Counted from the stretch's first letter, positions 17,242 through 47,327 are shown. The stretch is 48,614 nucleotides of DNA from Thermoproteota archaeon (GCA_003661385.1 QMWA01000001.1:1-48614), one strand, 5' to 3'. Made by a program: numbers and translations. Notes: generated by a model not told the origin, from the sequence alone.

Positions 17242-17255
17242 GGGTGGGGTTAAGC

Positions 17256-17516: not shown

Positions 17517-17517
17517 C

Positions 17518-18702: not shown

Positions 18703-18703
18703 C

Positions 18704-24555: not shown

Positions 24556-25506
24556 TTGAGGCTCAGAATCAAGCCTGAACTGTACAGCCTAGAGCTAACC
24601 TTCTACCCATCATTCCTCTCATCGCTATACGAGAGACGTGGAGGCTGGCTGGTCAAGATAGCTGGGGTACATAAGGGCCTTGCGCTAAGGCAGCTCCCAG
24701 ATGGCACCCTAGAGGCTAAGCTGCCCCTTGGCCTGGATACGCCTATAGAGGCCGTATTAGAGCAGACAGGGCTATGGCATAAGCCATTTGAGTACAAGCT
24801 GCATCAGCTAGCTGAGCCCTTGAGAAGCTACGCTGAAGCTCTAGCAGAAGGCCTTCCTGGCCTTAGAATCCCGGTTTCGCCAAGAGACTTACAGCAGATA
24901 ACCGTTGCTGTCTTGCTATCTAAGAGGACAGACTACCACAGGTTCACCCTCAAGTGGTGTAAGAGGATATGGCTAGAGATTGGTGAGACATGGAACCTAA
25001 TAACGTCATCAGCATCTCTCAGCGGAGTAGGGTCAAGCTATCAGATAGAAGAGATGAGGAAGTCTCTCTCATGCCTCCTGAAGCTTCAGCCCATGCTTGA
25101 AGCTCTAGCAGTAGAAGGGAAGGCATCTCCCATGAGAAAGCTTCTCATGTCATGTTGGGGCATAGGCCCAAAGACTGCAGACGCCATAGCCCTATGTACA
25201 ACCCGATGTACATCCGTATATCCATGTGACACAAACCTCATGAGAGTGCTAACAAGGGTAGGACTACTGTCAAGCTTGCACTCTCCTCCAGAGAAAGCCT
25301 ACTGCCTGAAGTACACGTGCCAAAGCTGCCCCAAAGAGAGCTGCACAGTGAAGGCGCTCAAAGCTGGAGAGCTCGGCGGCTGGCTCCAGTCACTAACATA
25401 TGTGGTAGGGAAGGTGTACTGTAGGCCTCTAAGGCCGCGCTGCTCGAGCTGCCCCGTGCAAGCTGTCTGTTCTAGCTTCTCACAGCCTTTTCGACGGCAT
25501 TCTTGA
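24556..25506 (+). CDS. HhH-GPD superfamily DNA glycosylase (endonuclease III-like, with Fe-S cluster loop)
   Basis: HhH with a lysine (CWGIGPKTADAI), catalytic Asp region YPCDTNLMRVLTRVG, and C-terminal C-x6-C-x2-C-x5-C (CRPLRPRCSSCPVQAVC). About 190 aa of N-terminal extension. TTG start. Confidence 0.8.
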   Translation: MRLRIKPELYSLELTFYPSFLSSLYERRGGWLVKIAGVHKGLALRQLPDGTLEAKLPLGLDTPIEAVLEQTGLWHKPFEYKLHQLAEPLRSYAEALAEGLPGLRIPVSPRDLQQITVAVLLSKRTDYHRFTLKWCKRIWLEIGETWNLITSSASLSGVGSSYQIEEMRKSLSCLLKLQPMLEALAVEGKASPMRKLLMSCWGIGPKTADAIALCTTRCTSVYPCDTNLMRVLTRVGLLSSLHSPPEKAYCLKYTCQSCPKESCTVKALKAGELGGWLQSLTYVVGKVYCRPLRPRCSSCPVQAVCSSFSQPFRRHS

Positions 25507-26422
25507 GCGCTGGGATCACCTTATAGAGGTCTCCTACTATCCCGTAGTCAGCTACCTTGAATATCGGTGCTTCAGGGTCCTTGTTTATAGCGACTATGAT
25601 CTTCGAGTCTCTTATGCCAGCAATGTGCTGCAGGGCTCCTGATATCCCAACTGCAATGTAGAGATCTGGCTTCACTTTCACTCCAGATAGCCCTATCCAC
25701 TGTGGGAACCAGCCTCTATCTGCCGCTACAGGCCTACTGCACCCGACCTCACCGCCTAGCAGCTCAGCTAGCTCTCTAAGCATCTCGAGATCCTGCTTTG
25801 CCTTCACTCCCCTGCCAGCTGACACAATGACTCTAGCCTCATCTAGCTTAGCTCTAGCTACCTCCTTCTTCCTCACCTCGACAACCTTGACCCTAGGCCC
25901 CGGAAGCTCCAGAGAAACCTGCTCAACGCTGCCCTTTTCAGCTGCCTTCTCTGCTGCCTCAAACTTCCTAGGTGGAATGGTCACTACGAGTGGCAGAGGA
26001 GACACCATAGTGGCTATAGCTACTCCGCCATACGCAGACCTCTTAGCGTATATCATGTCATCCTTGTAGCTGAGCTCGATGCAATCCGTTACACAGCCTG
26101 CATCGAGCTTTGTCGCCAGCCTCGGAGCAAGCTCCTTACCCCTCTTAGTTCCTCCCACCAAGACTAAAGTCGGCTCACTGCCTACTAGCTTAGCTAAGGC
26201 TTTAGCGTAAACCTCTGCATCAAATTGCTCAAAAACAGCTCCCGATACCGCTACCGCCTTGTCGACTCCGTGCTCAGCCAGCTCCTCAGCTCTCTTCAGG
26301 GCGTCAGCTCCTAGAGAAGCCGATACAAGGCTCCATCCAGTGGCCTGCTTGAGCTGGAGGCCAGCTCTAACTAGCTCTAAGGCTACAGACTGAACCTCAG
26401 AGTAAACCCATATGCTAGGCAT
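25472..26422 (-). CDS. etfA: electron transfer flavoprotein, alpha subunit
   Basis: C-terminal FAD domain: VVSAGRG...[43 protein letters not shown]...[13 protein letters not shown]. Confidence 0.9.
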
Positions 26423-26426
26423 GCTA

Positions 26427-27218
26427 TCACCTCAACACTCCCTCCTGGAGAAGGTACTTCACAAGCTCCTCAGCAGCCTCCTCAGCAGGCTTCTCCTCGA
26501 TTATCACGCCTTTCCTCTTGACCTCAGGCGCATAGACGTCCGCTACCTTGACTTTAGACCCCTTCTCCCCAACCACGTCTGCACCGACCTCTAGGTCGCC
26601 TGCTCCCCAGTACACTATAGGCTTCTTAGATGCTCTTAGTATATCCCTCAGCGATGGGAGTCTTGGCTCATTTATCTCTCTCGTGACTGTAACTACAGCT
26701 GGCAGCTCCACCTCAACGACCTCATACTCCTCCTCTAGGTCCCTCTCAGCAGTGAGCTTCTCTCCCTCAACGCTGAGCTTCCTGACATAGGTTACCTGAG
26801 GTAGGTCTAGTAGCTCAGCTAGCCTAGGGCCCACCTGGGCTGAGAGCCCGTCCAGGGCCATTTCACCACACAGGATGAGCTTGTAGTCTCCTAGCTTTCT
26901 AGCTGCTGCTGCCAGCAGCCTCGCAGTAGCAAGGGTATCTGAGCCCTCGAATGCAGGGTCACTTAGAATGTAGACTTCATCAAGCCCCATTGCTAAGGCT
27001 TCTCTAGCAGCCTCTCTTGCAGCTTGGGGCCCAACGCAAAGCCCGGTTGCAGTCCATCCTGTCCTCTCCTTTACTCTTATTGCCTCCTCTATGGCCCTCT
27101 TGTCTATGTCTCCCGTCTTCCTTTTAGCTCCCTCAACCACAGGCTTCCTTGTAGAGGGGTCTATTCTGAGTTCTGAGGCGTCAATTGAGTACTTGAAGCA
27201 TGCTATGACGCGAGGCAA
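26427..27218 (-). CDS. etfB: electron transfer flavoprotein, beta subunit
   Basis: VIACFKYSID..., DLILCGEMALDG-type motif (KLILCGEMALDGLSAQVGPRLAELLDLPQVTYV). 263 aa. Lies 4 nt upstream of etfA. Confidence 0.9.
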   Translation of the reverse strand: MPRVIACFKYSIDASELRIDPSTRKPVVEGAKRKTGDIDKRAIEEAIRVKERTGWTATGLCVGPQAAREAAREALAMGLDEVYILSDPAFEGSDTLATARLLAAAARKLGDYKLILCGEMALDGLSAQVGPRLAELLDLPQVTYVRKLSVEGEKLTAERDLEEEYEVVEVELPAVVTVTREINEPRLPSLRDILRASKKPIVYWGAGDLEVGADVVGEKGSKVKVADVYAPEVKRKGVIIEEKPAEEAAEELVKYLLQEGVLR

Positions 27219-30997: not shown

Positions 30998-31483
30998 CTA
31001 AAGGTATTTGCGGCAGTAGTCACACCACCACCTCTGGTACTCTTTTATGTACCTAGCTGGCCTACCGCATGTCGGGCATGTAACAGCTGCAGTGACGGGC
31101 TTCTCAGCTTCAACATATCTTACAGCAGCTACAGCCTTAGCGAGCTCTACTTCGACTCCACCAACCCGCCCTGCGATGAAGTTGTATATCGCTGCCTCTA
31201 TAGCTAGTATGATCGCTGACACCACTCCACCAATCAAGCCCATCAGAAGCCCCATGACTACCATCATTGCAGCAACTACACCTCCTCTGATTCCAGGGTA
31301 CCTGGTAGGCATCCCTGGTATAGGTAGCATTCTAACTGTAGTACCAAAGACGACAGCATATATCACTCCCAGTATCAGGCCTAGGATTATCCCTATGAGC
31401 AGGGCGACCTTAAAGACGGAGGCAACTCCAACGCTTTTAATCTCATATCTCTCACTCATTGTTGCACCCACCTCGCCTACCAA
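30998..31483 (-). CDS. membrane protein with C-terminal zinc-ribbon (CxxC...CxxC)
   Basis: Three hydrophobic helices, then CPTCGRPARYIKEYQRWWCDYCRKYL. Start is TTG 31483 or ATG 31459. The antisense ORF 31047..31508 is T/S/P-rich and rejected. Confidence 0.6.
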   Translation of the reverse strand: MVGEVGATMSERYEIKSVGVASVFKVALLIGIILGLILGVIYAVVFGTTVRMLPIPGMPTRYPGIRGGVVAAMMVVMGLLMGLIGGVVSAIILAIEAAIYNFIAGRVGGVEVELAKAVAAVRYVEAEKPVTAAVTCPTCGRPARYIKEYQRWWCDYCRKYL

Positions 31484-32177: not shown

Positions 32178-33224
32178 TTAGTGCCCGCCATGCTTGCTTT
32201 TCTTCATTTCAGCAAGCTTCTCCACAGAAGTAAGCTTTCCAAGCTCCACCGCCTCTATGCACCCTGCTTCAACAGCTCTAGCAAAGAGCCTGCTCCCAAC
32301 CTCTGTTCTCACGAGCACAGTGGAGAAGCCTGCTTTCGTCCCCACTGAGCCAACTGAGATGTCTGCGAGCTCGCTTGTGAAGTCTGTGCAGGCCTTACAG
32401 GACCCGCGTACATACTCCTTCATCTCGCTAACTGGCCTTGAGAACACCTCCTCACTGCCACGGTAGGCTATGAACTTACCCTTCTTGATGTCAAACTTCG
32501 TTACTTCACTTAAGCTAACTGAGCTCTCCTCCAACAGCTTAGCAAGCTTGCTGTAGTCAAAGGACTCCATACAGAAAAGCCCTACCACAAGCTTCACTCT
32601 GCTACCCAGCTTAAGAGCACTCTCAGGAGAGTGCTGCATCCTCCTCACTCCTCTGACCACGCATGGCGTCCCCACTACGCCGACTTTCTCAGCTCCATAG
32701 CAGTAGACTGCGTCCCAGATGGCAGAAGCCATGTATGGGGGGGTGTACTTCGTGCCAGCTGCGTCTATAACCTCCTTTGCTGTCAAAGCGACCTTCGCAA
32801 AGGGCCTCCAAGGCTCCTCTCTCGAGGTGCCTGCTACAATCACTGCATCAAGCACCTTCTCCTCTAGAGCATACTTCAGCAGAGCAGTCACAACGCCTCC
32901 ATCCTGCCCCCTCTCACGTATCACTGGGTCTACAGCTCTAGCCTTATAGGCTTTGGTGAACACTCCAAGGGGCCCTGGCTTACTCTCGCCGAACAGCATA
33001 CCATATATCTCGTCACCGCCAGTCTGAGGACAGCTATTGTAGCAGAAGCCACACCTAAGGCATGGTCCAGCAAGCTTTGGGGTGTCATCGGCTATCGTGA
33101 TCGAGTTCACGAAGCACGCTGAGACACACGCCCCGCAGGCAGTGCAGATGCCTGCTCTAATGACCTCCTTAAGCAGGTGCGCGAACATCTTCCTAGGTAA
33201 GGAGCTCACCTCACAGCTCCTCAA
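32178..33224 (-). CDS. FrhB/FdhB/FpoF-family flavo-iron-sulfur protein with N-terminal 2x[4Fe-4S] ferredoxin domain
   Basis: CTACGACVSAC and CLRCGFCYNSCP, then the FrhB N/C domains: GQDGGVVTALLKYAL, VGTPCVVRG, VGLFCMESF, CKACTDFTSELADISVGSVG...STVLVRTEVG. Confidence 0.85.
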   Translation of the reverse strand: MRSCEVSSLPRKMFAHLLKEVIRAGICTACGACVSACFVNSITIADDTPKLAGPCLRCGFCYNSCPQTGGDEIYGMLFGESKPGPLGVFTKAYKARAVDPVIRERGQDGGVVTALLKYALEEKVLDAVIVAGTSREEPWRPFAKVALTAKEVIDAAGTKYTPPYMASAIWDAVYCYGAEKVGVVGTPCVVRGVRRMQHSPESALKLGSRVKLVVGLFCMESFDYSKLAKLLEESSVSLSEVTKFDIKKGKFIAYRGSEEVFSRPVSEMKEYVRGSCKACTDFTSELADISVGSVGTKAGFSTVLVRTEVGSRLFARAVEAGCIEAVELGKLTSVEKLAEMKKSKHGGH

Positions 33225-33531
33225 AGCCTAAGACTCGCCTGACAACCAAGTCTATGGCTTCTCCGATGTCTGCCTCGAGTATCCTGCTAGCTTTCTTCTC
33301 AGCCTCCTCCTCTATCCTCTTTGCCTCAGCACTAGCCTCCTTGATCTTCTTCTCCTTGATCTCCTCAGCTTTCTCTAGCGCCTTTCTCTTCTCTCTCTCG
33401 AGTATCTCCTTGGCCTTCTCCTCTGCTTCAGCAAGTATCTCGCTACTCTTCCTCTTAGCCTCTTCAACTATCCTCTTAGCCTCCTCCTCTGCTTTAATGA
33501 TCTCGAGAAGAACCTCGCTCATCAGCTCCAC
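33211..33531 (-). CDS. E/K/A-rich coiled-coil protein (resembles archaeal A/V-ATPase subunit H / stalk-type helices)
   Basis: 106 aa, almost entirely a charged helix (IIKAEEEAKRIVEEAKRKSSEILAEAEEKAKEILEREKRK...). Same strand as its neighbours, and its stop overlaps the FrhB-like start by 14 nt. Low complexity makes the call tentative. Confidence 0.55.
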   Translation of the reverse strand: MELMSEVLLEIIKAEEEAKRIVEEAKRKSSEILAEAEEKAKEILEREKRKALEKAEEIKEKKIKEASAEAKRIEEEAEKKASRILEADIGEAIDLVVRRVLGFEEL

Positions 33532-33557
33532 CCAGCCTCTGACTCCAGTTTTAAAAT

Positions 33558-35087
33558 TTAACCTGAGATCCTGATGAGCTTCACCTCACCCGTGGTTTTG
33601 TCCCTAATCTTGAGCTTTACTGTCTGCGGCGTCATCAGAGCCATGTAGTACAGCCCTTTAACAGCCTCTTCAACTGAAAGCCCTATGGTAGCCTCCAACA
33701 TAGCTGCTGCATTCACGACATATGGGTGCTTAGCCCTATAGCAGCTCACCCTATCTCCACCTGCTGTCTCAATGAGTACCACATGCTCTCCTCCTGGGCT
33801 TTCTACCCTAGCCACACATAGCCCTCTACCAGCTTTCCTAGCTACCCTAGACCTGAACGCGCCTGCAGGCGCTGTCCTAAGGGCTTCAGCAGCTATATCC
33901 ATGGCTTCAATGGCTTCTCTAAGCTCAAGCTCCATGATGCTAGCTAGGTCTCCCCCACTCTCTACGAGAGCTGCCTTCTTCAGCTCACTGTACACCGCAT
34001 AAGGCTCGTCGACCCTAACATCCAAGGCAGCTCCACATGCCCTTGCAACTACGCCAGTAGCCCCCTCCACTAGGCTCCCCCTTACTTTGCATACACCACT
34101 GAGCTCTTCGCAGGCCTTGTCTACCACCTCACTTGACTCAAGCTTCTCTCTGGCTTCACTTAGCCTGCTAGCCAGCTTACTCTCCTTATCTCCGCTGATA
34201 TCGAAGGCGACGCCCCCGATCAGAATAGCTCCAAGCCCTAGAGGGCTTCCAGTTGCAGCCACAAAGCCGCTCCTCAGGAGCCTTTCAGCCTCATGCCCCT
34301 CGCTCCAGCTGTATCCAAGCCATCTCAGAAACCTAACTAGGTGCTCCACATGTGCTAGTGCTCTCTCGGCTTCAAGGAGCACAGCTCTGAGGTACTCGCC
34401 TCGTAACGGTGGGCTCACACCAAGAGCTTCCTCAGCAGCCATCGAGTAGCATGCTGCCTGAGCTATGGGGTATCTTCCAGCCCTTTCAGCTAGAGGAAGG
34501 CTTCTGAACAGCCCTTGCTCCTCAGCTCTCCTCTCAACGCCGTAGTGTAATCCCCCTAGAGCGAGAACCCCGCCTTCCACCATGCCCTTCTCAGCTGAGA
34601 CCTCGAAGAAAGCCCCTCCCCTCAAGCTAGCAGAAGCCAGCTTACTTCTCACGTCCTCAGCTCTGGCTCTAAGCGGATAAAGCTCACTAGGCCACCCTTC
34701 GGGCAGAAAGAGCACCATGGATTTGCCTCTCCCGCTGTATTCCACTCCAAGCAGGCTAGCTGTCTCTGCTTCATAAACTGCTGCAGCAGGATATACACCT
34801 GAGCTGGAATCCAGCTTCCACCCTTCAGCCGCCAGGATAACGACCCCTTCTCTGCCAGCTAGCAGGTACCTGACCAGGGGCCTCTCCTCTCTCAGGCATG
34901 CAGCTATGTAGGCTAGCCTGAAGCCGGCTTCCTTAAGCTTTCTGAGGGCCTCAACTAGAGCAGCAGCCTCAACCTGGGCTTCTACCTTCCCTCCTTTAAG
35001 CTCCCTAACCTCAGCAGCCCCCTCTCCAACAGAGCTCTTGACAAGCTCAAGTAAGCTGCCTGCCATCATAGCACCATTGGGGCTCAC
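33558..35087 (-). CDS. fused NuoC-like / NuoD-like ([NiFe]-hydrogenase large-subunit fold) protein lacking Ni-Fe cysteine ligands
   Basis: The N-terminal ~150 aa align to the in-window NuoC (LKEAGFRL..., GVYPAAAVYEAETASLLGVEYSG, LPEGWPSELYPLR). The rest aligns to the in-window NuoD (LGGLHYGVERRAEE, ILIGGVAFDI, DVRVDEPYAVY, VESPGGEHVVLIE...YRAKHPYVVN). RxCGxCxxxH is replaced by RAGRYPIAQAA and DPCxxCxxR by YYMALMTPQ. ATG 35069 is a possible alternative start. Confidence 0.75.
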   Translation of the reverse strand: MSPNGAMMAGSLLELVKSSVGEGAAEVRELKGGKVEAQVEAAALVEALRKLKEAGFRLAYIAACLREERPLVRYLLAGREGVVILAAEGWKLDSSSGVYPAAAVYEAETASLLGVEYSGRGKSMVLFLPEGWPSELYPLRARAEDVRSKLASASLRGGAFFEVSAEKGMVEGGVLALGGLHYGVERRAEEQGLFRSLPLAERAGRYPIAQAACYSMAAEEALGVSPPLRGEYLRAVLLEAERALAHVEHLVRFLRWLGYSWSEGHEAERLLRSGFVAATGSPLGLGAILIGGVAFDISGDKESKLASRLSEAREKLESSEVVDKACEELSGVCKVRGSLVEGATGVVARACGAALDVRVDEPYAVYSELKKAALVESGGDLASIMELELREAIEAMDIAAEALRTAPAGAFRSRVARKAGRGLCVARVESPGGEHVVLIETAGGDRVSCYRAKHPYVVNAAAMLEATIGLSVEEAVKGLYYMALMTPQTVKLKIRDKTTGEVKLIRISG

Positions 35088-35113
35088 TCTGAGCCTTCAA
35101 TAAGGTTACTAAC

Positions 35114-35131
35114 CTAGCTGCATGCAGCTAG
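35114..35131. promoter_or_regulatory. 18-bp perfect palindrome CTAGCTGCATGCAGCTAG between divergent hydrogenase-like genes (candidate operator)
   Basis: Exact reverse-complement symmetry. It lies in the 77-nt divergent spacer, flanked by A/T-rich TATA-like stretches (35097-35109 facing the minus strand, 35135-35144 facing the plus strand). Confidence 0.5.
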
Positions 35132-35164
35132 AGCAAAGCTTATCTTCAGAGCTAGAAGCCCCCC

Positions 35165-35755
35165 ATGGGGCTTCACTTGCAGGCTAGCTCAGGGCTTAAG
35201 CTAGTTCATGTAGCTGTTGGCCTGTGCAGCGGCTGCCTCAGGCAGGTTGAAGCTGCTCTAAGCTCTGGGGGAGAGTTGCACGAGAAGAGCATCCTAGTTG
35301 TCTCAGGTGCTCCTTCTCACATACATGCACGCGAGATACAGGAGGCTTGGAGGTCTCTACCAGAGCCTAAGGTCGCTATCGCTGTAGGTGCATGTGCTTG
35401 CAGCGGTGGAGTATTCAGGGAGTGCTATGCTTTTAGGGCTCTAAACAGCATTATACCAGTCAAAGTGATGGTGTCAGGCTGCCCCCCTCCTGAGGAAGCA
35501 ATCCTCAAAGCTCTTAGAGAGGAAGCTGCCTCAGCTGATGTAGATGGCTATAGAGGGGCTCCAGCTATAAACGAAGAACTCTGTGTAGCTTGTGGGCTAT
35601 GTAGCCGGGAATGCCCACCTGGAGCATTAGAGGCGGGGGAAGGAGAGAAACCGAGGCTTAACCAGTGGAGGTGCATAAGCTGCAGCCGATGCGAGATGAT
35701 ATGCCCTAGAGGAGCCATTGAGATGACACCTAGATTCACCATATCGCTCACTTAA
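35165..35755 (+). CDS. hydrogenase small-subunit/NuoB-like protein fused to a 2x[4Fe-4S] ferredoxin domain
   Basis: Aligns to the in-window NuoB: VGLCSGCLRQVE (CxxC spacing as in group-4 hydrogenase small subunits, not the NuoB CC), LPEPKVAIAVGACACSGGVF, VSGCPPPEEA. The C-terminal domain carries CVACGLCSRECP and CISCSRCEMICP. Confidence 0.8.
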   Translation: MGLHLQASSGLKLVHVAVGLCSGCLRQVEAALSSGGELHEKSILVVSGAPSHIHAREIQEAWRSLPEPKVAIAVGACACSGGVFRECYAFRALNSIIPVKVMVSGCPPPEEAILKALREEAASADVDGYRGAPAINEELCVACGLCSRECPPGALEAGEGEKPRLNQWRCISCSRCEMICPRGAIEMTPRFTISLT

Positions 35756-35759
35756 GTGC

Positions 35760-36773
35760 TTAGCTAGGCTTGCACGCCTCTCTAAGCATTTTTCTCACAG
35801 CATACTCCGGGAATTCCTCTAGAACCCTCCTATACCTGCTCTCTGGGAACACTGATATCGCCTCTCTAGCTAGCCTGCACTTCTCACATACATATCTGAA
35901 TGCACTCCTCGCAACCCTCTTCAGAAACTTCCTCTCACGCCTAATTACAGCTGCTCTTAAAGCAGCTCCATACCCGGGTATGAGCATAAACACCCCTCCA
36001 GGCCCCCTAGCAAGCACAAGCTTCCTAAAAAGCTCTATAGCAGCTTCTCTACCTGAGAAGAATGCTACCATGGGGAATATCGATGTCATCAGGTCTGCTT
36101 CAGCAGCTCCATTCTGGAGGAGCTTACTCAAGTCAACGAGGTCATCTGCTACCTGGAAAGCCATTCCACATAGGAGCCCATAGACGTATGCTCTCTCCCG
36201 CAGCTCTGAAGGGGCTTTAGCTGCTATGGCCCCCAGCTTACAGGCTGTAGCAAAAAGCTCACCTGCCTTCAGCTTCACTATGCTTTCATAAAGCTCCTCC
36301 TGTATGCTCCCATAGATCAAGCTTGAAGCTATGTCCTTGAATCCAAGAGGCTCCATGACAGCTCCTCTAGCAACGTTGTACACAGCCTCGCTTAAAGCAT
36401 CCTTGCTGCCGTCCTCGCTCTTGGTCAGCTTTATGGCGGCGCTCATAAGCAAGTCAGCGAGTAGCACAGCCTTTCTAGGGCCTATAACTGCGTAAAGAGG
36501 AAGCTTCCCCCTTCTAACCTTATGCCTGTCAACGTAGTCGTCGTGGGTCAGTGTTCCAGCGTGTATCATCTCAATTGCTGCAGCATACTCCAGCGCATCT
36601 TCTCTTCTCCCTCCGAGCGCTTCACATGTGAGCAGGCACAGGACTGCGCGGAGCCTCTTCCCTCCAGTGAGTTGGAATAGCATGTGTCTGCTGAAGTGGA
36701 GCCTTCTAGCCATCTCAGCTAGCTTAAGGTCTATCAGAGGCCTAGTTTCCCTAGCATAGCTCTCGATATCCAA
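35760..36773 (-). CDS. trans-polyprenyl diphosphate synthase
   Basis: FARM LTHDDYVDRH and SARM FQVADDLVD. 337 aa. Confidence 0.9.
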   Translation of the reverse strand: MDIESYARETRPLIDLKLAEMARRLHFSRHMLFQLTGGKRLRAVLCLLTCEALGGRREDALEYAAAIEMIHAGTLTHDDYVDRHKVRRGKLPLYAVIGPRKAVLLADLLMSAAIKLTKSEDGSKDALSEAVYNVARGAVMEPLGFKDIASSLIYGSIQEELYESIVKLKAGELFATACKLGAIAAKAPSELRERAYVYGLLCGMAFQVADDLVDLSKLLQNGAAEADLMTSIFPMVAFFSGREAAIELFRKLVLARGPGGVFMLIPGYGAALRAAVIRRERKFLKRVARSAFRYVCEKCRLAREAISVFPESRYRRVLEEFPEYAVRKMLREACKPS

Positions 36774-36821
36774 TGTCCCCTCCCAAGCTCAGCACCACCT
36801 CCTCATAAGCTTGGCGCTCCA

Positions 36822-37835
36822 CTAGCCCCTAAGCAAGGCGGTTCCCAGAGCTTTCACCAGCTCTAGGACAGGAACTCTGCTGCCAGAGTAAAGCTGGGTA
36901 ACGAGGCTGTCTCCAGCTTCAGCTATAACCCTACCTCTAAGCCCTTCTGGAGTAGCGATGATAGCCTTAAGCACAGCCTTACCCCGCTGAAACCTCCTAC
37001 CGAAGGCGGATTTCCACAGCCTCTCATAGCTCTTAGTGAAGCATATCCTACCAGAGAAGAGGGCGTACTTTATTCCCTCTCCACTAGATGGCATCACGAG
37101 GCCGGCTGCCTCACCAGCAGCCACAACACCCTTAGCTGTGAACCTCCTTATAGGCCCACTGACGCATACTGGTGCAGCTCTAATGTGCCCGCTTAAGCTG
37201 AGCTTAAGCTTCCTTAAACCCAGCCTAAGCCACGCCTCGAGAGCACGCAAGCTGGAGAACCCTCCTACACCAAAGTTCACTGTCCTGTCTCCTCTTGGGA
37301 AAGCCCACCCATATCCAGAGGGAAGTATGCTTATCAAGATTTCATCTTCACTCAATCTCCCCTTACAGTAGCACTGCAAGGCTGGAATAGATCTGTACCC
37401 ACGGTAGTCAAGGCCTCTCCACCTAGCTATGCTACCTGGGTTCCCGCTTGCATCTACGATGAGATCGCATTCAAGCCTGCTCCACGGCCTTACTCTGCTT
37501 CCCATCTTGACCACTGCTCCCTCTGACTCCGCTGCCTCCTTAAGCTCTCTCAGCATAGCCTTCTTGTCTATTATGTACCCGAATGTGCTAGCTGACTCTA
37601 CCCTCCGAAGGGGCCTCCAGTATAGGCAAAGCAGGCACCCAGCTACCCTATTCAGTATAAAGTCACCGCAGCCTGGTGGCAGGTGCCTCATCGTGTCCTC
37701 TGGTATACCCTCGCCACATGGTTTAGCTCCGAGCTCGCGGCTCTTTTCATACACCACCACACCATGCCCAGCTCTAGAAGCCCAGTATGCGCAGCTCAGC
37801 CCGGCTACTCCGGCTCCCACAACTACTAGCCTCAA
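36822..37835 (-). CDS. geranylgeranyl reductase-family FAD-dependent oxidoreductase
   Basis: Rossmann motif VVVGAGVAGLSCAYWASRAGHGVVVYEK at the extreme N-terminus, GGR-type KPCGEGIP, and GEAAGLVMPSSGEGI. The TTG start is required to retain GxGxxG. Confidence 0.85.
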   Translation of the reverse strand: MRLVVVGAGVAGLSCAYWASRAGHGVVVYEKSRELGAKPCGEGIPEDTMRHLPPGCGDFILNRVAGCLLCLYWRPLRRVESASTFGYIIDKKAMLRELKEAAESEGAVVKMGSRVRPWSRLECDLIVDASGNPGSIARWRGLDYRGYRSIPALQCYCKGRLSEDEILISILPSGYGWAFPRGDRTVNFGVGGFSSLRALEAWLRLGLRKLKLSLSGHIRAAPVCVSGPIRRFTAKGVVAAGEAAGLVMPSSGEGIKYALFSGRICFTKSYERLWKSAFGRRFQRGKAVLKAIIATPEGLRGRVIAEAGDSLVTQLYSGSRVPVLELVKALGTALLRG

Positions 37836-37860
37836 GCTTCATCCCACTGCTTCGTAACCG

Positions 37861-37866
37861 TTATAA
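37861..37866. promoter_or_regulatory. single palindromic TATA-like element TTATAA at the midpoint of a 53-nt divergent spacer
   Basis: The centre (37863.5) is 28.5 nt from start 37835 (minus) and 25.5 nt from ATG 37889 (plus). Confidence 0.5.
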
Positions 37867-37888
37867 GCTGCTCCATTAGCAGCCAGCT

Positions 37889-38782
37889 ATGCTCGGCAGC
37901 TGGCTCAAGCTAATTAGAGCGAACTTCCTCCTCCTTACTCCAGTAGTCTACTCGCTGGGCATAGCCTCTCTCCTATACGATGGCATCCCAATAGATGCTG
38001 TAGATGCAGCCTTAGCTTTGGTCGCAAGCATACTATCACACATGTCGGTCAATGTGCTGAACAACTACTTCGACTACAAGAGCGGAATAGACCTGAAGTC
38101 CAGGAAAACACCCTTTAGTGGAGGTGTCGATGTCCTGGCTAGAGGCGAGATATCACCGAGAGGGGCTCTCGCACTTGGGCTCACCTCAGGTCTCACTGCA
38201 GCTGCTATAGGAGCCTACTACATGCAAAAGTGCCCCAAGCTCATTGGAGCCATAGTGGCCTATGCTGCAGCCTGCGTTACCTTATACACCCCTGTTCTAT
38301 CTCATGTTCCAGCTTTATCAGAGGTTGTCGCTGGAACAGGCTTCTCGCTGATGTGCCTGTGGGCTTACGTGGTTCAAGCCAGAGCTTTGAGTTCGACAAT
38401 AGCCTCACTATACGTGTTCTCATCGATACTCGTCGGAGTCCTGCTGCTTCTAAACGAGTTCCCCGACATGGAAGTGGATAAGGAAGCTGGTAGAAGACAC
38501 ACTGTAGTGCTATTGGGGAGAGGTGGGGCAGCAAGGGTGTACGCAGCTCTAGTAGCTGCAGCTTACATCACTCTCATCGCTGCAGTGGCTGCCCGCATCC
38601 TACCACTAGCTGCTCTCCTAGCTCTGGCGACAGCGCCTCTGGCAGTAGACTCCTCAAGAAGGGTGCTAGCTAGCCCAGATAGCTTTGAAAGCATGCTTCA
38701 AGCGATGGCCAGGAACCTAGCTGTGGTCCTGCTGTCCATAGCTCTAGCCTCAACGGGGTTATCTGCTGCAGCGCTGCTATGA
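37889..38782 (+). CDS. menA: UbiA-superfamily prenyltransferase, MenA-like (1,4-dihydroxy-2-naphthoate polyprenyltransferase-like)
   Basis: NVLNNYFDYKSGID (NxxxDxxxGxD) and the second Asp-rich motif NEFPDMEVDKEAGRRH. About 8 TM helices. 297 aa. Confidence 0.75.
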   Translation: MLGSWLKLIRANFLLLTPVVYSLGIASLLYDGIPIDAVDAALALVASILSHMSVNVLNNYFDYKSGIDLKSRKTPFSGGVDVLARGEISPRGALALGLTSGLTAAAIGAYYMQKCPKLIGAIVAYAAACVTLYTPVLSHVPALSEVVAGTGFSLMCLWAYVVQARALSSTIASLYVFSSILVGVLLLLNEFPDMEVDKEAGRRHTVVLLGRGGAARVYAALVAAAYITLIAAVAARILPLAALLALATAPLAVDSSRRVLASPDSFESMLQAMARNLAVVLLSIALASTGLSAAALL

Positions 38783-38827: not shown

Positions 38828-38869
38828 CAATTCAATGTGGAGGTTGCTGAGAGCCCCTCGGGGGGTTAT

Positions 38870-39268
38870 ATGCTTGCTCCAGGCTTCGACTTGGCAGCAG
38901 CCATCACACTCGCCCTCGCCTTCGCTATAGGCGTCGTTATAGGGGCTATTGGCTTTGTACTCGGCAGAATAATTTCACCAAGGCGAGAGCTCCCGATGAA
39001 GCGTGAGAGATACGAGTGCGGCAACAAGCCAATGGGGAGGGCTAGAGGATGGTTTGCAATGCAATACTACCCGTACCTCATAGTGTTCCTCACAGTAGAG
39101 CCCATAGCGATATACTGCTTCCTATCACTGATACTTGCCAAAGAAGCCCTCCTCCAAGTCTCAGCTATTCTAGCTCTGATAGTAGCTATGCTAGCTCCAA
39201 CCCTGCTCTTCGGTTTAGAGGCAGCTAGGAGGGTTGAGCTATGGCTTGTTCAGGAGGATTCATCCTGA
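38870..39268 (+). CDS. nuoA: NADH-quinone oxidoreductase subunit A
   Basis: Three TM helices and the RERYECGNKP loop. The track ORF starts at GTG 38837, but ATG 38870 fits the promoter/SD geometry. Confidence 0.85.
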   Translation: MLAPGFDLAAAITLALAFAIGVVIGAIGFVLGRIISPRRELPMKRERYECGNKPMGRARGWFAMQYYPYLIVFLTVEPIAIYCFLSLILAKEALLQVSAILALIVAMLAPTLLFGLEAARRVELWLVQEDSS

Positions 39269-39771
39269 TAGGTGAGCTTGAGGAGGTAGCGCGAAAAGCT
39301 GCTCAGTGGCTAGTGGAGAAGACACCTATCAAGACGATAAGAGACTGGGGCATAAGGTTCTCCCTTTGGCCGGTGCACTTCACCACAGCATGCTGTGGGG
39401 CAGAGTTTGCAGCTACATCAGGCCCAAGGTACGATGCTGAGAGATACGGGTTCCTCCCGTTTACAGCCCCAAGGCAGTGCAACCTTATGCTGATAGAAGG
39501 CACGCTAACCAAGAAAATGGGCAGAGCTGCAAAGATAGTCTATGACCAGATGCCAGAGCCGAAGTTCGTCATAGCAATGGGAGTCTGTGGCTTAGATGGA
39601 GGGATATTCTGGAACAGCTATAACATAGTGAGGCCATGGCAGATCCTGCCAGTCGAGGTGTTCATACCAGGATGCCCACCTAGACCTGAAGCTGTAGCTA
39701 GAGCAATACTGATGCTACAGGAGAAGATAAAGAAGGAGGGTGTCAAAGTTGAAGCTAGAGGAGGTACTTGA
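39241..39771 (+). CDS. nuoB: NADH-quinone oxidoreductase subunit B
   Basis: FTTACCGAEF, AMGVCGLDGG, IPGCPPRPE (N2 cluster ligands). Confidence 0.9.
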   Translation: MACSGGFILIGELEEVARKAAQWLVEKTPIKTIRDWGIRFSLWPVHFTTACCGAEFAATSGPRYDAERYGFLPFTAPRQCNLMLIEGTLTKKMGRAAKIVYDQMPEPKFVIAMGVCGLDGGIFWNSYNIVRPWQILPVEVFIPGCPPRPEAVARAILMLQEKIKKEGVKVEARGGT

Positions 39772-40228
39772 GCTCCTAAAAGCCGCGCTCAGCGGCGTCG
39801 AGTGCCTCATCGGAGAGGAAAGTGGGATACCGACGGTGAGAGTCCACCCAGAGAACCTCCTTGAGGCAGCTAAGAAGCTGAAGGAAAGCGGATTCGACCA
39901 CGTGAAGTCGGTAACCGGGTTAGACTACCCAGATGAAGGGGAGATAGAGGTAGTATACCATGTCTCATCATACACCAAGCCTGAGCTGACGAAGGTCATA
40001 GTAGCCTTGAAGGCTAGAGTCAAGAGGGACTCGCCAAAGCTCACGTCACTTTACGGGATATGGCCTAGCTCAGCCTACCTGGAGTCAGAGACCTACGACC
40101 TGATGGGGGTGGAGTTCGAGGGAAACCCGAAGCAGAGGAGGCTTCTTCTACCTGAAGACTACGAGGGAATCCCTCCACTCAGGAAGGACTTCAAGATACC
40201 TGTCGAGGGGGTTGATGCGGTTGAGTGA
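39740..40228 (+). CDS. nuoC: NADH-quinone oxidoreductase subunit C
   Basis: 30-kDa subunit motifs: SLYGIWPSSAYLESETYDLMGVEFEGNP...LLLPEDYEGIPPLRKDF. Confidence 0.9.
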   Translation: MSKLKLEEVLELLKAALSGVECLIGEESGIPTVRVHPENLLEAAKKLKESGFDHVKSVTGLDYPDEGEIEVVYHVSSYTKPELTKVIVALKARVKRDSPKLTSLYGIWPSSAYLESETYDLMGVEFEGNPKQRRLLLPEDYEGIPPLRKDFKIPVEGVDAVE

Positions 40229-41384
40229 GAGGACAATCGAGCTCTATATAGGCCCCCAGCACCCCGGCTCAGGCCACATGAGGTTTGACATAACGCTTGA
40301 CGGGGACATAATAGTGAAAGCTGAGCCTAGCATAGGCTACGTACACAGGTCAGTCGAGAAAATAGCAGAGACTAAAACCTACATCCAGATAGCTCCCCTG
40401 GTTGAGAGGCCTTCTCTGGCTGACACAGTCAACCCAAACCTAGGCTACATCCTAGCACTGGAGAAGCTTCTAGGAATTGAGGCTCCACCCAGAGCACAGT
40501 ACCTGAGGACACTAGCAGCTGAAGCAAACAGGATCCACAGCCACTTCTACGGTATAGGGATCCTAGGCATAATGCTAGGCTCCTCAACGGCATTCATGTG
40601 GGCCTTCGCAGACAGGGAGATCATGATAGAGCTCCTCCAGATGCTGACTGGAGCTAGGATAACATACTCATATGTAATACCAGGTGGAGTCAGGAGAGAC
40701 CTCCCAGTAGGCTTCAAGGAGGCAGCTGAAAAAGCGCTGAGGTACCTGGAGAGGAGGCTAAAAGACTACGAGAAGCTCTTCTTCGAGAACCCCGTCACAG
40801 TAGCTAGGCTCAAGGGCGTTGGGGTGCTGAAAAAGGAGGATGCTATAGCCCTAGGGATAGTGGGCCCAAACCTGAGGGCTTCAGGGGTCCACTATGATGT
40901 CAGGAGGATAGAGCCCTACGCTGCCTATGACGACCTAGACTTCGAGGTAGTGGTCAAGAAGGAGGGAGACTCCTACGCCAGGCTCATGGCTAGAGTCGAG
41001 GAGATAAAGCAGAGCATGCGTATAATAAGGCAGGTGCTCGAGAAGATACCTGATGGCCCAATACTCCACGAGAAGTACTACAAGATGATCCCTCCGAAGA
41101 CTAGAAAGCAGATAGAGGAGACTGGCAGGCTCAAGTTCCCAGCTGCATTCGCAACGCTAAAGCCCCCCAAGGGGGAGGCTTTGTCCAGGGTTGAGGGGGC
41201 TAGAGGAGAGTTCCTCTATTACGTTGTCAGCGATGGCTCACCTAGGCCATACAGGTTCAGAATGGTCTCCCCGTCATTCAGGAACGTATGGCTATTTGCC
41301 CACCTGCTTCCAGGCCACAGGCTAGCTGACATACCAGCCATATACGGTAGCATAGACTACTTCCCGCCCTGCGCTGACAGGTGA
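40212..41384 (+). CDS. nuoD: NADH-quinone oxidoreductase subunit D
   Basis: IGPQHPGSGHMRF, GYVHRSVEK, EGARGEFLYYVVSDG...YRFRMVSPSF. As expected for NuoD, there are no Ni-Fe Cys pairs. Confidence 0.9.
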   Translation: MMRLSERTIELYIGPQHPGSGHMRFDITLDGDIIVKAEPSIGYVHRSVEKIAETKTYIQIAPLVERPSLADTVNPNLGYILALEKLLGIEAPPRAQYLRTLAAEANRIHSHFYGIGILGIMLGSSTAFMWAFADREIMIELLQMLTGARITYSYVIPGGVRRDLPVGFKEAAEKALRYLERRLKDYEKLFFENPVTVARLKGVGVLKKEDAIALGIVGPNLRASGVHYDVRRIEPYAAYDDLDFEVVVKKEGDSYARLMARVEEIKQSMRIIRQVLEKIPDGPILHEKYYKMIPPKTRKQIEETGRLKFPAAFATLKPPKGEALSRVEGARGEFLYYVVSDGSPRPYRFRMVSPSFRNVWLFAHLLPGHRLADIPAIYGSIDYFPPCADR

Positions 41385-41393
41385 GGTGGTTTC

Positions 41394-42419
41394 ATGCAGG
41401 TGTCTGAGATTATAAGCTGGCTGATAAACCTCCTCTTCTACAAGCCTGAGGTGTTCTGTCCAATATTCTATCCTGGGCTAGTCACAATCCTAGCTCTCCT
41501 CATATTCATAATCTGGCTTGAGAGGAAGATAGCTGCCAAAGTACAGCTCAGATATGGCCCACTCTATGTCACAAGGAAGGCTGGTGGAATCCTTCAGCTT
41601 CTAGCAGATCTCCTCAGGTACATGTTCCAGGAGCCAATCATACCGAAGACTGTAGACAAGATAGCGTTCATAGCAGGCCCAGTCCTCCTGTTCGCGACGG
41701 CATACGTGCCTGCTGCCCTCCTGCCGGCTACAGCAGAGTTCACAGGGCTGAGGAGCGAGCTCAGCCTGCTAGCTGTGCTAGCTCTCCTCACCCTAGCACC
41801 GATATTCGACATAATAATAGGCTGGGGAAGCAACAACAAGTTCAGCCTGATAGGCAGCATGAGAGAAGGGTACATTGTGATGTCATATGAGATACCAATG
41901 TTCCTCTCTACTCTAGCAATAGCCATGGTATACGGGAGCCTAAACATAGTTGAGATAGTTGAGATGCAAAGCCGCTGCTGGGGCATCTTACTCAACCCCA
42001 TTGCAGCAGCCACGTTCCTCCTGGTTGCCCTCATATCCACAGCCAGGTTCCCCTTCGAGATAGCTGAAGCTGAAACAGAGATAGTCATGGGGCCATACAC
42101 AGAGTACAGTGGGATCCTATATGGGCTGCTGATGGGCGCCAGCTACGTCAAGTTCTATGTGCTTAGCATGCTCTTCGCCCTCCTGTTCCTAGGAGGATGG
42201 CACCCTAGCATCACGTGGCTCGAGAAGATACACCCCGCTGCACCTGGCCTAGTAGTGTTCATCAAAGCTCTCATCATAATGGTATTCGGCATATTCCTGA
42301 GAGCTGTATACCCAAGGTTCAGAGTAGACCAAGCGATAAGGGTAGGCTGGCACCTGCTGTTCATGCTCTCAATGCTCTCAATAGCATACTCCCTAGCTGT
42401 AATCTGGCTAGTAGGGTGA
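41394..42419 (+). CDS. nuoH: NADH-quinone oxidoreductase subunit H
   Basis: Polytopic. QLRYGP and the ND1 signature PFEIAEAETEIVMGPYTEYSG. Confidence 0.9.
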   Translation: MQVSEIISWLINLLFYKPEVFCPIFYPGLVTILALLIFIIWLERKIAAKVQLRYGPLYVTRKAGGILQLLADLLRYMFQEPIIPKTVDKIAFIAGPVLLFATAYVPAALLPATAEFTGLRSELSLLAVLALLTLAPIFDIIIGWGSNNKFSLIGSMREGYIVMSYEIPMFLSTLAIAMVYGSLNIVEIVEMQSRCWGILLNPIAAATFLLVALISTARFPFEIAEAETEIVMGPYTEYSGILYGLLMGASYVKFYVLSMLFALLFLGGWHPSITWLEKIHPAAPGLVVFIKALIIMVFGIFLRAVYPRFRVDQAIRVGWHLLFMLSMLSIAYSLAVIWLVG

Positions 42420-42423
42420 TAGC

Positions 42424-42900
42424 ATGGAGCTCCCTAAGAGAGTTGTTCACCACATTGAAGCCCTCTTGACTGGAGCTAAGTACCTGGTTGCAAAGCCTAG
42501 GATGACAGTGATGTACCCTGAGGAGGCTCAGATCCTCCCAGAAGGCTACAGAGGGATGCCTAAGTTCAACAGGGAGAAGTGCAGGAGCTGCAGCCTATGT
42601 GCAAGGATCTGTCCAGCTAACGCCATAAAGATGTACACAGTTGAGGTTGAAGGCGAGAAAAAGAAGAAGTACCCTGGGATAAACTACAACAGGTGCATCT
42701 TCTGTGGGTTCTGCGTGGACATCTGCCCAGCTGGCGCCCTGGAGTTCACCGACATCCACGACTACGCCTCATACAGCCTCGAGGACCTCGTGTTTAAGCC
42801 TGACAGGTTTGCTGAAGGACCTCCCCCGAGGCCTTTCAAGCCTAAGCTCGTTAAGCCCATGCTAGATGAGGAGGTGGGGTTGAAGTATGTTCCAGGCTAA
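42424..42900 (+). CDS. nuoI: NADH-quinone oxidoreductase subunit I
   Basis: CRSCSLCARICP and CIFCGFCVDICP (2x[4Fe-4S]). Confidence 0.9.
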   Translation: MELPKRVVHHIEALLTGAKYLVAKPRMTVMYPEEAQILPEGYRGMPKFNREKCRSCSLCARICPANAIKMYTVEVEGEKKKKYPGINYNRCIFCGFCVDICPAGALEFTDIHDYASYSLEDLVFKPDRFAEGPPPRPFKPKLVKPMLDEEVGLKYVPG

Positions 42901-43372
42901 CATAGTTGAAGGTCTAATATTTACCTTAGCTGCAGCTCTCACAATAGCTTCAGCTGCGCTGGTTGTGTCAGCGAAGTCGCTGGTCTACTCCGCCTTCTTC
43001 CTAGCACTAGTGGGCGCAGGCAACGCTGTCTTCATGGCTATGCTAGGCTTCCCAGTAATATCGCTGTTCCAGCTGTCTGTCTACGTTGGAGCTGCAGTCA
43101 CATTCATCCTGTTCTCCATAACCATGTTCAGGAAGCCTGTGAGAATAGAGCCTACAGCTGGTATACTGGCCTTAGATGCTGCAGTGCTAGCTACAGCAGG
43201 CCTCCTCTATGCTTTCCAGTCAGTCACAGGGACCCCTGTCTCAGTAGGCTTCAAGGAGATCTCGTCCCTGCTCATAGGCAAGTACAGGTTTGCTCTGATT
43301 ATAGCGTCCCTAGCCCTCGTTACCACGCTTATTGAAGCCATAACCCTAGCTATGAGAGGTGAGATGAAATGA
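42887..43372 (+). CDS. nuoJ: NADH-quinone oxidoreductase subunit J
   Basis: 161-aa hydrophobic protein at the conserved position between nuoI and nuoK. ND6-like N-terminal helices. Confidence 0.8.
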   Translation: MFQANIVEGLIFTLAAALTIASAALVVSAKSLVYSAFFLALVGAGNAVFMAMLGFPVISLFQLSVYVGAAVTFILFSITMFRKPVRIEPTAGILALDAAVLATAGLLYAFQSVTGTPVSVGFKEISSLLIGKYRFALIIASLALVTTLIEAITLAMRGEMK

Positions 43373-43671
43373 CGGTCCTACCTTATCTTGCTGTGTCGGC
43401 CTGCCTGTTTGGAATAGGCCTATATGGCCTGCTGTCAAGTAGGAACTTCATCAAGATGCTCCTGTCAGCTGAGGTTATATTCAATGGCGGCCTGCTTGCG
43501 TTGCTGTCTTTGGCAGCTGCCTCAGGTGCGCCCCCAACAGGCGGTACTATAGCGATACTAGCCATAGCGATTGCTGCAGCCGAAGTTGGTGTGGCGGTCT
43601 CTATAGCAATCCTCATGTTCATGCTGAAGGGAGATGTAGATGTGTATAAGCTTGAGAAGTTTAAGGGGTGA
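43369..43671 (+). CDS. nuoK: NADH-quinone oxidoreductase subunit K
   Basis: 100 aa, three TM helices, AIAIAAAEVGVAVSIAIL (conserved Glu). Confidence 0.9.
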   Translation: MTVLPYLAVSACLFGIGLYGLLSSRNFIKMLLSAEVIFNGGLLALLSLAAASGAPPTGGTIAILAIAIAAAEVGVAVSIAILMFMLKGDVDVYKLEKFKG

Positions 43672-47326: not shown

Positions 47327-47327
47327 G

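Follow-up and report, generated by a model that had tools for sequence, protein, structure and literature searches.

Within a 48,614-nucleotide stretch of archaeal DNA deposited as Thermoproteota (GCA_003661385.1, QMWA01000001.1:1-48614; hereafter the window), positions 32178-35755 carry four genes whose products appear to comprise the entire hydrophilic core of a group-4 [NiFe] hydrogenase, pairwise fused into two polypeptides and lacking the ligands for nickel, together with an FrhB-family flavoprotein and a coiled-coil protein. Our favoured reading, to which we assign a probability of roughly 45%, is that the four genes encode a single cytoplasmic or loosely membrane-associated, Ni-free, F420-linked Fe-S flavoprotein complex in which the path of electrons ends at the proximal cluster. 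The catalytic-type subunits are of group-4 origin, and the module as a whole appears to derive from an Ehi/Mbh-type group-4 [NiFe] hydrogenase with an associated FrhB, of which it would be the hydrophilic arm. The host is an uncultured hot-vent member of the Korarchaeia, not of the Thermoprotei within which a survey of orthologues had initially been framed. Specifically, the contig belongs to the metagenome-assembled genome (MAG) B14_G2, placed by GTDB in the Korarchaeales, family B14-G2, with a GC content of 52.8% (PMC10667645, supplement), and exact-sequence matching links proteins of the module to NCBI records RLG53298 and RLG53301, assigned to a MAG of "Candidatus Korarchaeota archaeon".

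An initial annotation, made from the sequence alone, had described four proteins in two divergent units here, and the open reading frames (ORFs), their Pfam domains and their cysteine motifs bear out that description at the same coordinates. Three genes lie on the minus strand with close spacing or overlap: C′D′ (33558-35087, 509 aa), a small gene for a protein rich in Glu and Lys with predicted coiled-coil character (33211-33531, 106 aa), and FrhB′ (32178-33224, 348 aa), the start of which overlaps the preceding gene by 14 nt. The fourth gene, B′ (35165-35755, plus strand, 196 aa), diverges from C′D′ across a 77-bp spacer (35088-35164). The profile searches proposed alongside that annotation returned matches to Complex1_30kDa, Complex1_49kDa, Oxidored_q6, FrhB_N/FrhB_C and Fer4, and only sub-threshold matches for the coiled-coil protein. 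Membrane subunit genes are absent from the module in the window as well as in three related loci that carry it (Kor3, L010 and L011), and a sequence scan found no hydrophobic segments in the module proteins. A canonical nuo operon begins 3.1 kb downstream of the module.

The C′D′ protein combines a NuoC/MbhK domain with a large subunit of the NuoD/MbhL/HycE type (Pfam Complex1_30kDa, 1e-8; Complex1_49kDa, 2e-16). In a phmmer comparison with PDB sequences, the top match was Escherichia coli HycE (7z0s_E, 4.5e-20), with MbsL and NuoD/49-kDa proteins ranking lower. The AlphaFold2 prediction, for which 71 sequences were aligned (mean predicted local distance difference test score, pLDDT, 94.8; predicted template-modelling score, pTM, 0.94) also returned HycE 7z0s_E as the top solved fold in Foldseek (TM-scores 0.86/0.82), followed by the Aquifex and E. 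coli NuoCD fusions. Identity to group-4 hydrogenases is 28%, versus 22-26% to the NuoD of the same cell, and the alignment shows that a C-terminal extension of the Mbh/Mbx type is retained. The probable true start of the protein is the ATG-ATG at 35069/35066.

What has been lost from C′D′ is the Ni-Fe site. When the protein is aligned with group-4 large subunits that contain Ni-Fe, ERA-GRYPIAQ stands in place of the L1 motif RxCGxCxxxH and ALMTPQTVK in place of the L2 motif DPCxxCxxR, and there is no CxxC anywhere in the C′D′ sequence. The dead Ni-Fe site of the initial annotation is confirmed by these substitutions, and the L1 and L2 cysteine pairs, which it had allowed might prove to be present, are missing both in the window and in a second MAG that carries the module, Kor3 (GCA_037917675). 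Since both sets of ligands are gone, H2 chemistry at the Ni-Fe site is excluded, as is the assignment of the locus to an ordinary hydrogenase. C′D′ is therefore a K-L (NuoC-NuoD) fusion of hydrogenase type, HycE-like, without Ni-Fe ligands.

With respect to the region around the former active site, the D′ stretches most conserved relative to Kor3 are residues 191-240, which replace L1, and residues 341-370 (RAxG...DVR), at 80-90% identity compared with 64% overall. The 90%-identical segment that replaces L1 fits a functional site maintained beside the proximal cluster, to judge from its conservation. The least conserved stretch, residues 151-180, corresponds to the beta1-beta2 loop and is only 30-35% identical. 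Here the N-terminal GPxHP motif is replaced by ASASLRGG, and D′ reads ASASLRGGAFFEV where GPQHP...H, with the equivalent of Nqo4 His38, is expected. Residues R205-Y206 fall within one residue of the column equivalent to Nqo4 Tyr87, where Kor3 has His, in an alignment that is itself ambiguous by one residue.

The B′ protein (Pfam Oxidored_q6, 4e-17, and Fer4 domains) joins a small subunit of the MbhJ/NuoB type to a 2x[4Fe-4S] domain. Its residues C21-x-x-C24, C77 and C106 occupy the alignment columns of the four cysteines that ligate the proximal cluster in NuoB/MbhJ-type proteins and are kept in three lineages, and two CxxCxxCxxxC ferredoxin motifs follow (C140/143/146/150 and C170/173/176/180); the claim that all four proximal cysteines persist next to a 2x[4Fe-4S] unit thus holds. 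The first ligand pair, C21-S-G-C24, is a hydrogenase-type CxxC, as opposed to the tandem CC of the canonical NuoB in the window (ACCGA, within a TTACCGA motif). A tandem CC ligating cluster N2 is a mark of NuoB/FpoB in complex I and Fpo (PMC4758237, PMC7684303). Consistent with a hydrogenase-type small subunit, B′ finds both its best structural counterpart and its longest sequence match in MbhJ (6cfw_J). An 11-residue loop, P(K/R)YDxERFG, that follows the first cysteine pair in 20 of 20 other aligned homologues is deleted in all three B′ lineages.

As for the fused ferredoxin noted in the initial annotation, it is present and can now be specified as NuoI/MbhN-like. The C-terminal domain of B′ is 42% identical to the window NuoI and to MbhN-type subunits, including the YRG motif that precedes it, and NuoI/HycF models outscore generic ferredoxin models; where NuoI/MbhN-type subunits have their N-terminal segment, B′ has the fusion linker. 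The same identity and YRG motif rule out a generic clostridial or polyferredoxin unit, and polyferredoxins top the PDB list for B′ because repeats inflate their scores. The AlphaFold model of B′ is reliable for the NuoB-like domain only, since the alignment is shallow in the C-terminal domain. B′ is thus a J-N (NuoB-NuoI) fusion, and with the K-L fusion C′D′ it makes up the entire hydrophilic core arm known from group-4 hydrogenases and complex I. In the earlier wording the pair was of "group-4/complex-I lineage"; the group-4 assignment stands, and the complex-I part does not, since C′D′ is HycE-like and B′ is MbhJ-like with a CxxC.

Gene calling has obscured the ligands of B′ in public records. 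The Kor3 protein seemingly lacks the first two cysteines because its called start lies too far downstream; an upstream in-frame ATG restores GLCSSC, and we reject the apparent loss as an artefact. More generally, the public calls of B′ orthologues are cut to 159-165 aa without the CxxC (locus L001, 9908-10000, Kor3; loci L010 and L011, 10001-10480), and the Kor3 call for C′D′ is over-extended at its N-terminus, abutting the true start codon of B′. Truncation on one side and over-extension on the other have thus hidden the proximal-cluster ligands in automated annotation.

The FrhB′ protein matches FrhB_FdhB_N (7e-25) and FrhB_FdhB_C (3e-46) in Pfam and exceeds the cutoff of NCBIfam PRK09325 (276 versus 269 bits). 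It carries an N-terminal 2x[4Fe-4S] ferredoxin domain, with CxxCxxCxxxC motifs at residues 27 and 55 (C27/30/33/37 and C55/58/61/65), as well as the cysteines of a core [4Fe-4S] cluster (C188, C218, C276 and C279). Among solved structures, the closest is 8RIU_B, which represents the zeta subunit of an F420-reducing carbon monoxide dehydrogenase (CODH) and matches over the full length (E 9e-63), followed by FrhB (3zfs_C, 7e-59) and then the F420H2-oxidising domain of Fsr; the range for these three is E 1e-52 to 1e-63. The ferredoxin-dependent family member HCAR scores only 8e-10. Models of FpoF fall far under their cutoffs on FrhB′ (169 versus 475 and 164 versus 444 bits), and domain layout and length match FpoF/FqoF. 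In Ca. Ethanoperedens, the 8RIU zeta subunit consists of a 2x[4Fe-4S] ferredoxin domain followed by an F420-reductase domain that contains flavin adenine dinucleotide (FAD) alongside a [4Fe-4S] cluster, and it acts as a plug-in F420 reductase that docks to its partner via the ferredoxin domain (PMC11493965). Because its layout matches 8RIU_B and F420-dependent relatives rank closest, FrhB′ is best read, from its sequence, as a plug-in F420 oxidoreductase module.

The genomic setting agrees with this reading. MAG B14_G2 encodes CdhA-D, and the F420-dependent enzymes Mer and Mtd are encoded by the conspecific MAG B10_G17; since the same species encodes both, F420 is a plausible physiological cofactor, and the deazaflavin-type cofactor suggested in the first description has gained support. 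Many TACK archaea encode homologues of FrhB′ at 46-49% identity, mostly as stand-alone genes, and one sits in a cluster with genes for F420 biosynthesis, Mtd and Ftr. The coiled-coil protein encoded between C′D′ and FrhB′ consists of 64% Glu, Lys, Arg and Ala. Its only matches, to AhaH and V-ATPase G/H, are below threshold (34.5 bits versus a cutoff of 48.5); we rejected an assignment as A-ATPase subunit H, as these matches are driven by composition, and assign it to no family.

In terms of conservation, the gene order recurs in L010 and L011, which are near-identical contigs of other samples, and in Kor3, in which the four proteins therefore co-occur, as the initial annotation had asked of other genomes, and in which the module again comes without membrane genes instead of lying within a membrane operon. 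Identities between the window and Kor3 are about 65% for C′D′, 69% for B′, 81% for the coiled-coil protein and 82% for FrhB′. The ratios of nonsynonymous to synonymous substitution (dN/dS) are 0.17, 0.13, 0.13 and 0.10, respectively, with synonymous sites at or near saturation (dS 0.8-1.6), and all four genes are thus under purifying selection. A third B′ lineage, 64% identical, lies on a 712-bp contig. Disabling mutations, a possibility raised at the outset, were not found in the relatives: reading frames are intact in at least three lineages. The spacer between C′D′ and B′ retains the blocks TTCAATAAGGTTACTA, GCAAAGCTTATCTT and AAGCCCC in Kor3 at a divergence at which dS in the flanking genes is saturated (1.5-1.6), and we regard these blocks as candidate divergent promoters.

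These data bear directly on the idea that the locus is what is left, in decay, of an earlier operon for a membrane-bound hydrogenase. In favour of it, the Ni-Fe ligands and the membrane genes are missing, and B′ and C′D′ are at most about 30% identical to any other protein. Set against this are the intact frames, the dN/dS values, the retention of all Fe-S ligands, the very confident AlphaFold model and the conserved promoter-like blocks. The dN/dS values and conserved ligands rule out pseudogenes, and decay, which we consider highly improbable, is effectively refuted by the selection analysis.

The family is also very narrow, having been found in about three Korarchaeal lineages and being essentially absent outside this clade. 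A word-indexed protein search for further members gave four matches, and an exhaustive phmmer search of 1.84 billion representative proteins returned nothing above 29% identity, the next-best relative being 28% identical (E 1e-30) and the next-best relatives in general a mix of group-4 hydrogenases and Ni-free relatives thereof. Of 185,579 species genomes scanned in GTDB, Kor3 was the only one to match, and a scan of JGI metagenomes gave only an ordinary Mbh/Mbx-type operon (L005). NuoB-ferredoxin fusions encountered elsewhere (P0288, locus L009) were set aside, as their domain order is reversed and they lie within a Hyf-like membrane operon.

The properties of FrhB′ raise the question of whether it is the functional unit of the locus by itself, acting as a soluble ferredoxin:F420 oxidoreductase or as a detachable FqoF-like input, with B′, C′D′ and the coiled-coil protein serving as scaffold or adaptor. 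FrhB′ does show the complete domain order of FpoF and CODH zeta, including a 2x[4Fe-4S] domain of its own for docking, its closest homologues are largely stand-alone, and it is the best conserved of the four proteins; furthermore, Korarchaeia with a reductive Wood-Ljungdahl pathway need a link from ferredoxin to F420 (PMC10667645). A pure scaffold, however, needs no complete electron wire to a proximal cluster, and yet three lineages, under purifying selection, retain all four proximal cysteines of B′ together with its two ferredoxin motifs, and the D′ segment facing the proximal cluster is the most conserved part of that protein. We consider it unlikely, on balance, that FrhB′ functions in this way with the remaining proteins as mere support.

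Among described systems, the closest relative of the module is Ehi and, in functional terms, Fpo/Fqo, and not Frh. Ehi is an expressed, FrhB-flanked group-4 hydrogenase of Methanonezhaarchaeia for which a role in oxidising the F420H2 of the Wood-Ljungdahl pathway has been proposed (PMC12700198). Two loci illustrate the likeness. In a Nezhaarchaeota MAG (L013; FrhB at 6001-8453), Mrp-type genes are divergent from J-K-L-N-FrhB-FrhB, with two tandem FrhB paralogues, and in L014 (FrhB at 6001-7143) Mrp-type genes, FrhB and two small ORFs are followed by J-K-L-M-N and then by HycI, HypC and HypA. In both, a group-4 J, K, L, N arm lies beside an FrhB-family gene with an N-terminal ferredoxin domain, the product of which is 42-43% identical to FrhB′, and of the group-4 large subunits compared with D′ (all 24-28% identical), that of L013 scores slightly above the rest (112 bits, versus 99 and 94). 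Because homologues of FrhB′ lie in or beside Mbh-type clusters in these loci, the window module looks like the hydrophilic arm of an Ehi-type enzyme.

The differences from Ehi are equally clear. The large subunits of L013 and L014 keep L1 and L2 (RxCGIC and DPCFxC), whereas both are missing from C′D′; the maturation genes HycI, HypA and HypC adjoin the L014 operon, whereas the module has none; and a full Mrp-type membrane set, with an MbhM anchor as well in L014, has no counterpart in the module. Conversely, the module has its J-N and K-L fusions, the loop deletions and an extra coiled-coil subunit. A 111-aa ORF that follows FrhB in L014 was considered as a counterpart of the coiled-coil protein and dismissed, being a membrane protein without similarity. 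The module thus looks like an Ehi-type arm minus nickel and membrane subunits, pairwise fused and supplemented with a coiled-coil protein.

The comparison with F420-reducing hydrogenase (Frh, group 3a, FrhABG) on which the initial annotation was built survives as an analogy of architecture. Like Frh, the module has a large subunit, a small subunit with three [4Fe-4S] clusters and an FrhB protein with FAD and [4Fe-4S], and B′ aligns end to end with the FrhG model, although below its cutoff (residues 40-184, 7.7e-12, 45 bits versus 245). The lineage is different, however: both catalytic subunits are of group 4, with a HycE fold in one and an MbhJ-like sequence in the other, and C′D′ lacks Ni-Fe ligands and carries a fused NuoC domain. 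A NuoC domain is absent from group-3 large subunits. In addition, FrhB′ has an additional ferredoxin domain, and a gene for the FrhD protease is absent from the module.

Other systems share individual features. MBS, MBX and Ehr likewise possess a hydrogenase-derived J-K-L-N arm with a lost Ni-Fe site, C′D′ also being without a complete set of Ni-Fe cysteines, and the C-terminal extension of D′ is of the Mbh/Mbx type, but they are ferredoxin-using membrane complexes with Mrp-type subunits and no FrhB, whereas the module has no antiporter genes. In MBS the proximal [4Fe-4S] cluster is itself catalytic (PMC7684303); that cluster is site-differentiated with three cysteine ligands, whereas B′ has an MBH-like CxxC and four cysteines. 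The F420-reducing CODH/acetyl-CoA decarbonylase/synthase and the formylmethanofuran dehydrogenase (Fwd) of Ca. Ethanoperedens (8RIU, 8RJA) have the ferredoxin plus F420-reductase layout of FrhB′ as a plug-in wired to the Fe-S chain of a partner, the partner being CODH or formylmethanofuran dehydrogenase and not a hydrogenase-like pair. In the open-access literature and bioRxiv we found no account of this gene combination. To this extent the suggestion that it was not a described system still stands, but the association of FrhB with a group-4 hydrogenase is already known from Ehi; what the papers searched do not describe is an arm of J-N and K-L fusions that has neither nickel nor an anchor and is combined with FrhB and a coiled-coil protein.

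The Fpo/Fqo complexes of Methanosarcina and Archaeoglobus require closer consideration, as they too combine Ni-Fe-free subunits of the B, C, D and I types with an FrhB-family F subunit bearing 2x[4Fe-4S], and an 11-subunit membrane complex with no NuoEFG gene in its operon adjoins the window module. This operon, nuoA B C D H I J K M L (N), occupies 38837-48614 on the plus strand and extends past the window end. As originally reported, the part of it that lies within the window has no NuoEFG gene in Pfam scans, and there is none for FpoF in or beside it. Differences from Fpo/Fqo lie in the CxxC of B′ instead of a tandem CC, in the scores of FrhB′ against FpoF, in the presence of canonical NuoB, NuoC, NuoD and NuoI in the same cell, in the absence of membrane genes from the module, and in an ancestry that is of hydrogenase and not NuoD type.

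This similarity suggests an alternative in which B′ and C′D′ form a second peripheral arm that replaces NuoB, NuoI, NuoC and NuoD on NuoH/NuoA, with FrhB′ as an FqoF-like input; the cell would then possess a second F420H2-dependent complex I, that is, an Fqo-like F420H2:quinone oxidoreductase, with one membrane arm shared between the two. The module supplies exactly the four hydrophilic core subunits and an FpoF-like protein, only 3 kb with quinone/isoprenoid genes separate it from the nuo operon, and the operon itself comes without an input gene. Moreover, Korarchaeal lineages with this operon have been proposed to use an Fqo-type F420H2:menaquinone oxidoreductase (PMC10667645), and the known J-K-L-N arms are all membrane-anchored (PMC7684303). 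Against this, B′ lacks the tandem CC characteristic of Fpo and complex I (PMC4758237), the beta1-beta2 motif with the His38 equivalent is lost from a poorly conserved part of D′, a conserved loop of the small subunit is deleted, and a linker takes the place of the N-terminal segment of MbhN/NuoI. B′ and C′D′ are also only 22-33% identical to the NuoB and NuoD of the same cell, and they evolve several-fold faster: NuoB and NuoD are 93-96% identical to their Kor3 counterparts, and the canonical nuo genes in general 89-96%, except for nuoC at 84%. To our knowledge, exchangeable peripheral arms are without precedent, which also counts against this arrangement. The proposal of an alternative complex-I Q-module made in the initial annotation is accordingly weakened, and we judge both a replacement arm and the second complex I that it implies to be quite improbable.

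Several independent features, namely the lost loop motif, the deleted loop, the linker, the lack of hydrophobic segments and membrane genes and the faster evolution, speak against a coupled membrane interface, though not decisively. In this connection, the beta1-beta2 loop is one of three coupling loops that are strikingly similar in MBH, MBS and complex I (PMC7684303). At the same time, conservation of residues 191-240 and 341-370 of D′ and retention of the proximal ligands suggest that electrons still reach the B′/D′ site.

Returning to the favoured reading of one Ni-free, F420-linked complex, we infer that the four proteins assemble into a probably soluble unit in which the FAD of FrhB′ would exchange hydride with F420 as the likely cofactor. 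Electrons would pass through up to six [4Fe-4S] clusters, three in FrhB′, two in the NuoI/MbhN-like domain of B′ and finally the proximal cluster of B′, with the chain ending at the B′/D′ interface, the former Ni-Fe site. There, the proximal cluster and the metal-free pocket of D′ would reduce or oxidise another acceptor, and one other than protons is proposed because hydrogen chemistry is excluded. By analogy, this chemistry may resemble quinone reduction at N2 of complex I or polysulfide reduction at the proximal cluster of MBS. The coiled-coil protein would be a lineage-specific structural subunit, and the physiological role, depending on which way electrons flow, would be either to re-oxidise or to make F420H2 for the F420-dependent Wood-Ljungdahl enzymes of the Korarchaeon.

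A number of points weigh against this reading. The evidence for assembly of the four proteins is their gene order, and synteny says little about functional linkage, because the whole 30-kb neighbourhood is syntenic among these close relatives; about three lineages also make for thin conservation statistics. Since the characterised J-K-L-N arms all sit on NuoH/MbhM and the genes for an entire nuo membrane arm lie at a distance of 3 kb, the complex may dock on that arm. Finally, FrhB′ alone could act as a ferredoxin:F420 oxidoreductase or an FqoF-type input, which would leave a redox role of B′ and C′D′ unproven.

The gap between the module and nuoA is filled by quinone/isoprenoid genes (35760-38782), identified with Pfam and NCBIfam: a polyprenyl diphosphate synthase (35760-36773, minus), a geranylgeranyl-reductase-family flavoprotein (36822-37835, minus) and a UbiA/MenA-like prenyltransferase (37889-38782, plus). 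They are counted here as neighbours and not as parts of the module. The UbiA gene lies immediately upstream of nuoA and is co-directional with it; Kor3 has no such gene at the corresponding position, and the synteny of the neighbours is kept in L010 and L011. With respect to the canonical operon, its nuoD (40212-41384, plus) encodes Leu where the quinone-binding tyrosine is expected (Nqo4 Tyr87, RxDY motif), the histidine equivalent to His38 is displaced by two residues in a GPQHPGSGH loop, and the protein scores nearly equally against Nqo4 (1e-81) and the sulfur-reducing MbsL (2e-81). The acceptor site of the nuo/Fqo-like complex may, in light of these three observations, be non-standard for quinone.

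Elsewhere on the contig, additional low-potential electron sources or carriers are represented by a 2-oxoacid:ferredoxin oxidoreductase set, with ferredoxin-type delta, POR_N/PFOR_II alpha and thiamine pyrophosphate-binding beta subunits, and a pair of genes for electron transfer flavoprotein (ETF) alpha and beta, the two sets lying at 16983-19597 (plus) and 25472-27218 (minus). Four ORFs have no Pfam match at E≤1e-5: 3878-5047 (plus, 389 aa), 19601-21484 (minus, 627 aa), 22844-23668 (plus, 274 aa) and 24556-25506 (plus, 316 aa), the last of which is kept beside the ETF genes in Kor3 and L010. A 161-aa ORF with a faint match to the DUF3566 transmembrane domain (30998-31483, minus) lies two genes, or about 0.7 kb, from the end of FrhB′; it is kept in relatives and is noted here as a neighbour of the module.

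Complex I, Fpo, MBS and membrane-bound hydrogenases presumably arose through the exchange of catalytic chemistry on a shared, conserved J-K-L-N arm. An arm without nickel, with a complete Fe-S wire and an F420 module but no anchor, would be a new state of this machine. If it is soluble, the arm can work as an independent enzyme and would offer a small, tractable model for proximal-cluster chemistry, whereas docking on the nuo membrane arm would make it the first case of interchangeable peripheral arms. The module also bears on F420 recycling in uncultured Korarchaeia with a Wood-Ljungdahl pathway, the electron sink of which has been left open in the literature; the published study of these same Korarchaeal genomes lists only the nuo locus and frhB (PMC10667645). 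In a more speculative extension, which we think unlikely but worth stating, the module would be a new soluble reductase, a free-standing Ni-free descendant of an F420-coupled energy-converting hydrogenase arm that would pass the electrons of Wood-Ljungdahl F420H2, via the proximal [4Fe-4S] cluster and the metal-free pocket of D′, to a non-proton acceptor. That this acceptor would be, for example, polysulfide or sulfane sulfur, or a quinone-type molecule, is similarly unlikely, and an exchangeable second peripheral arm for the neighbouring complex I would be a variant of the same idea. Were it true, such a reductase would be the electron sink that these Korarchaeia have been reported to lack (PMC10667645), and it would provide a living example of the step from hydrogenase to complex-I-type chemistry, taken outside the membrane.

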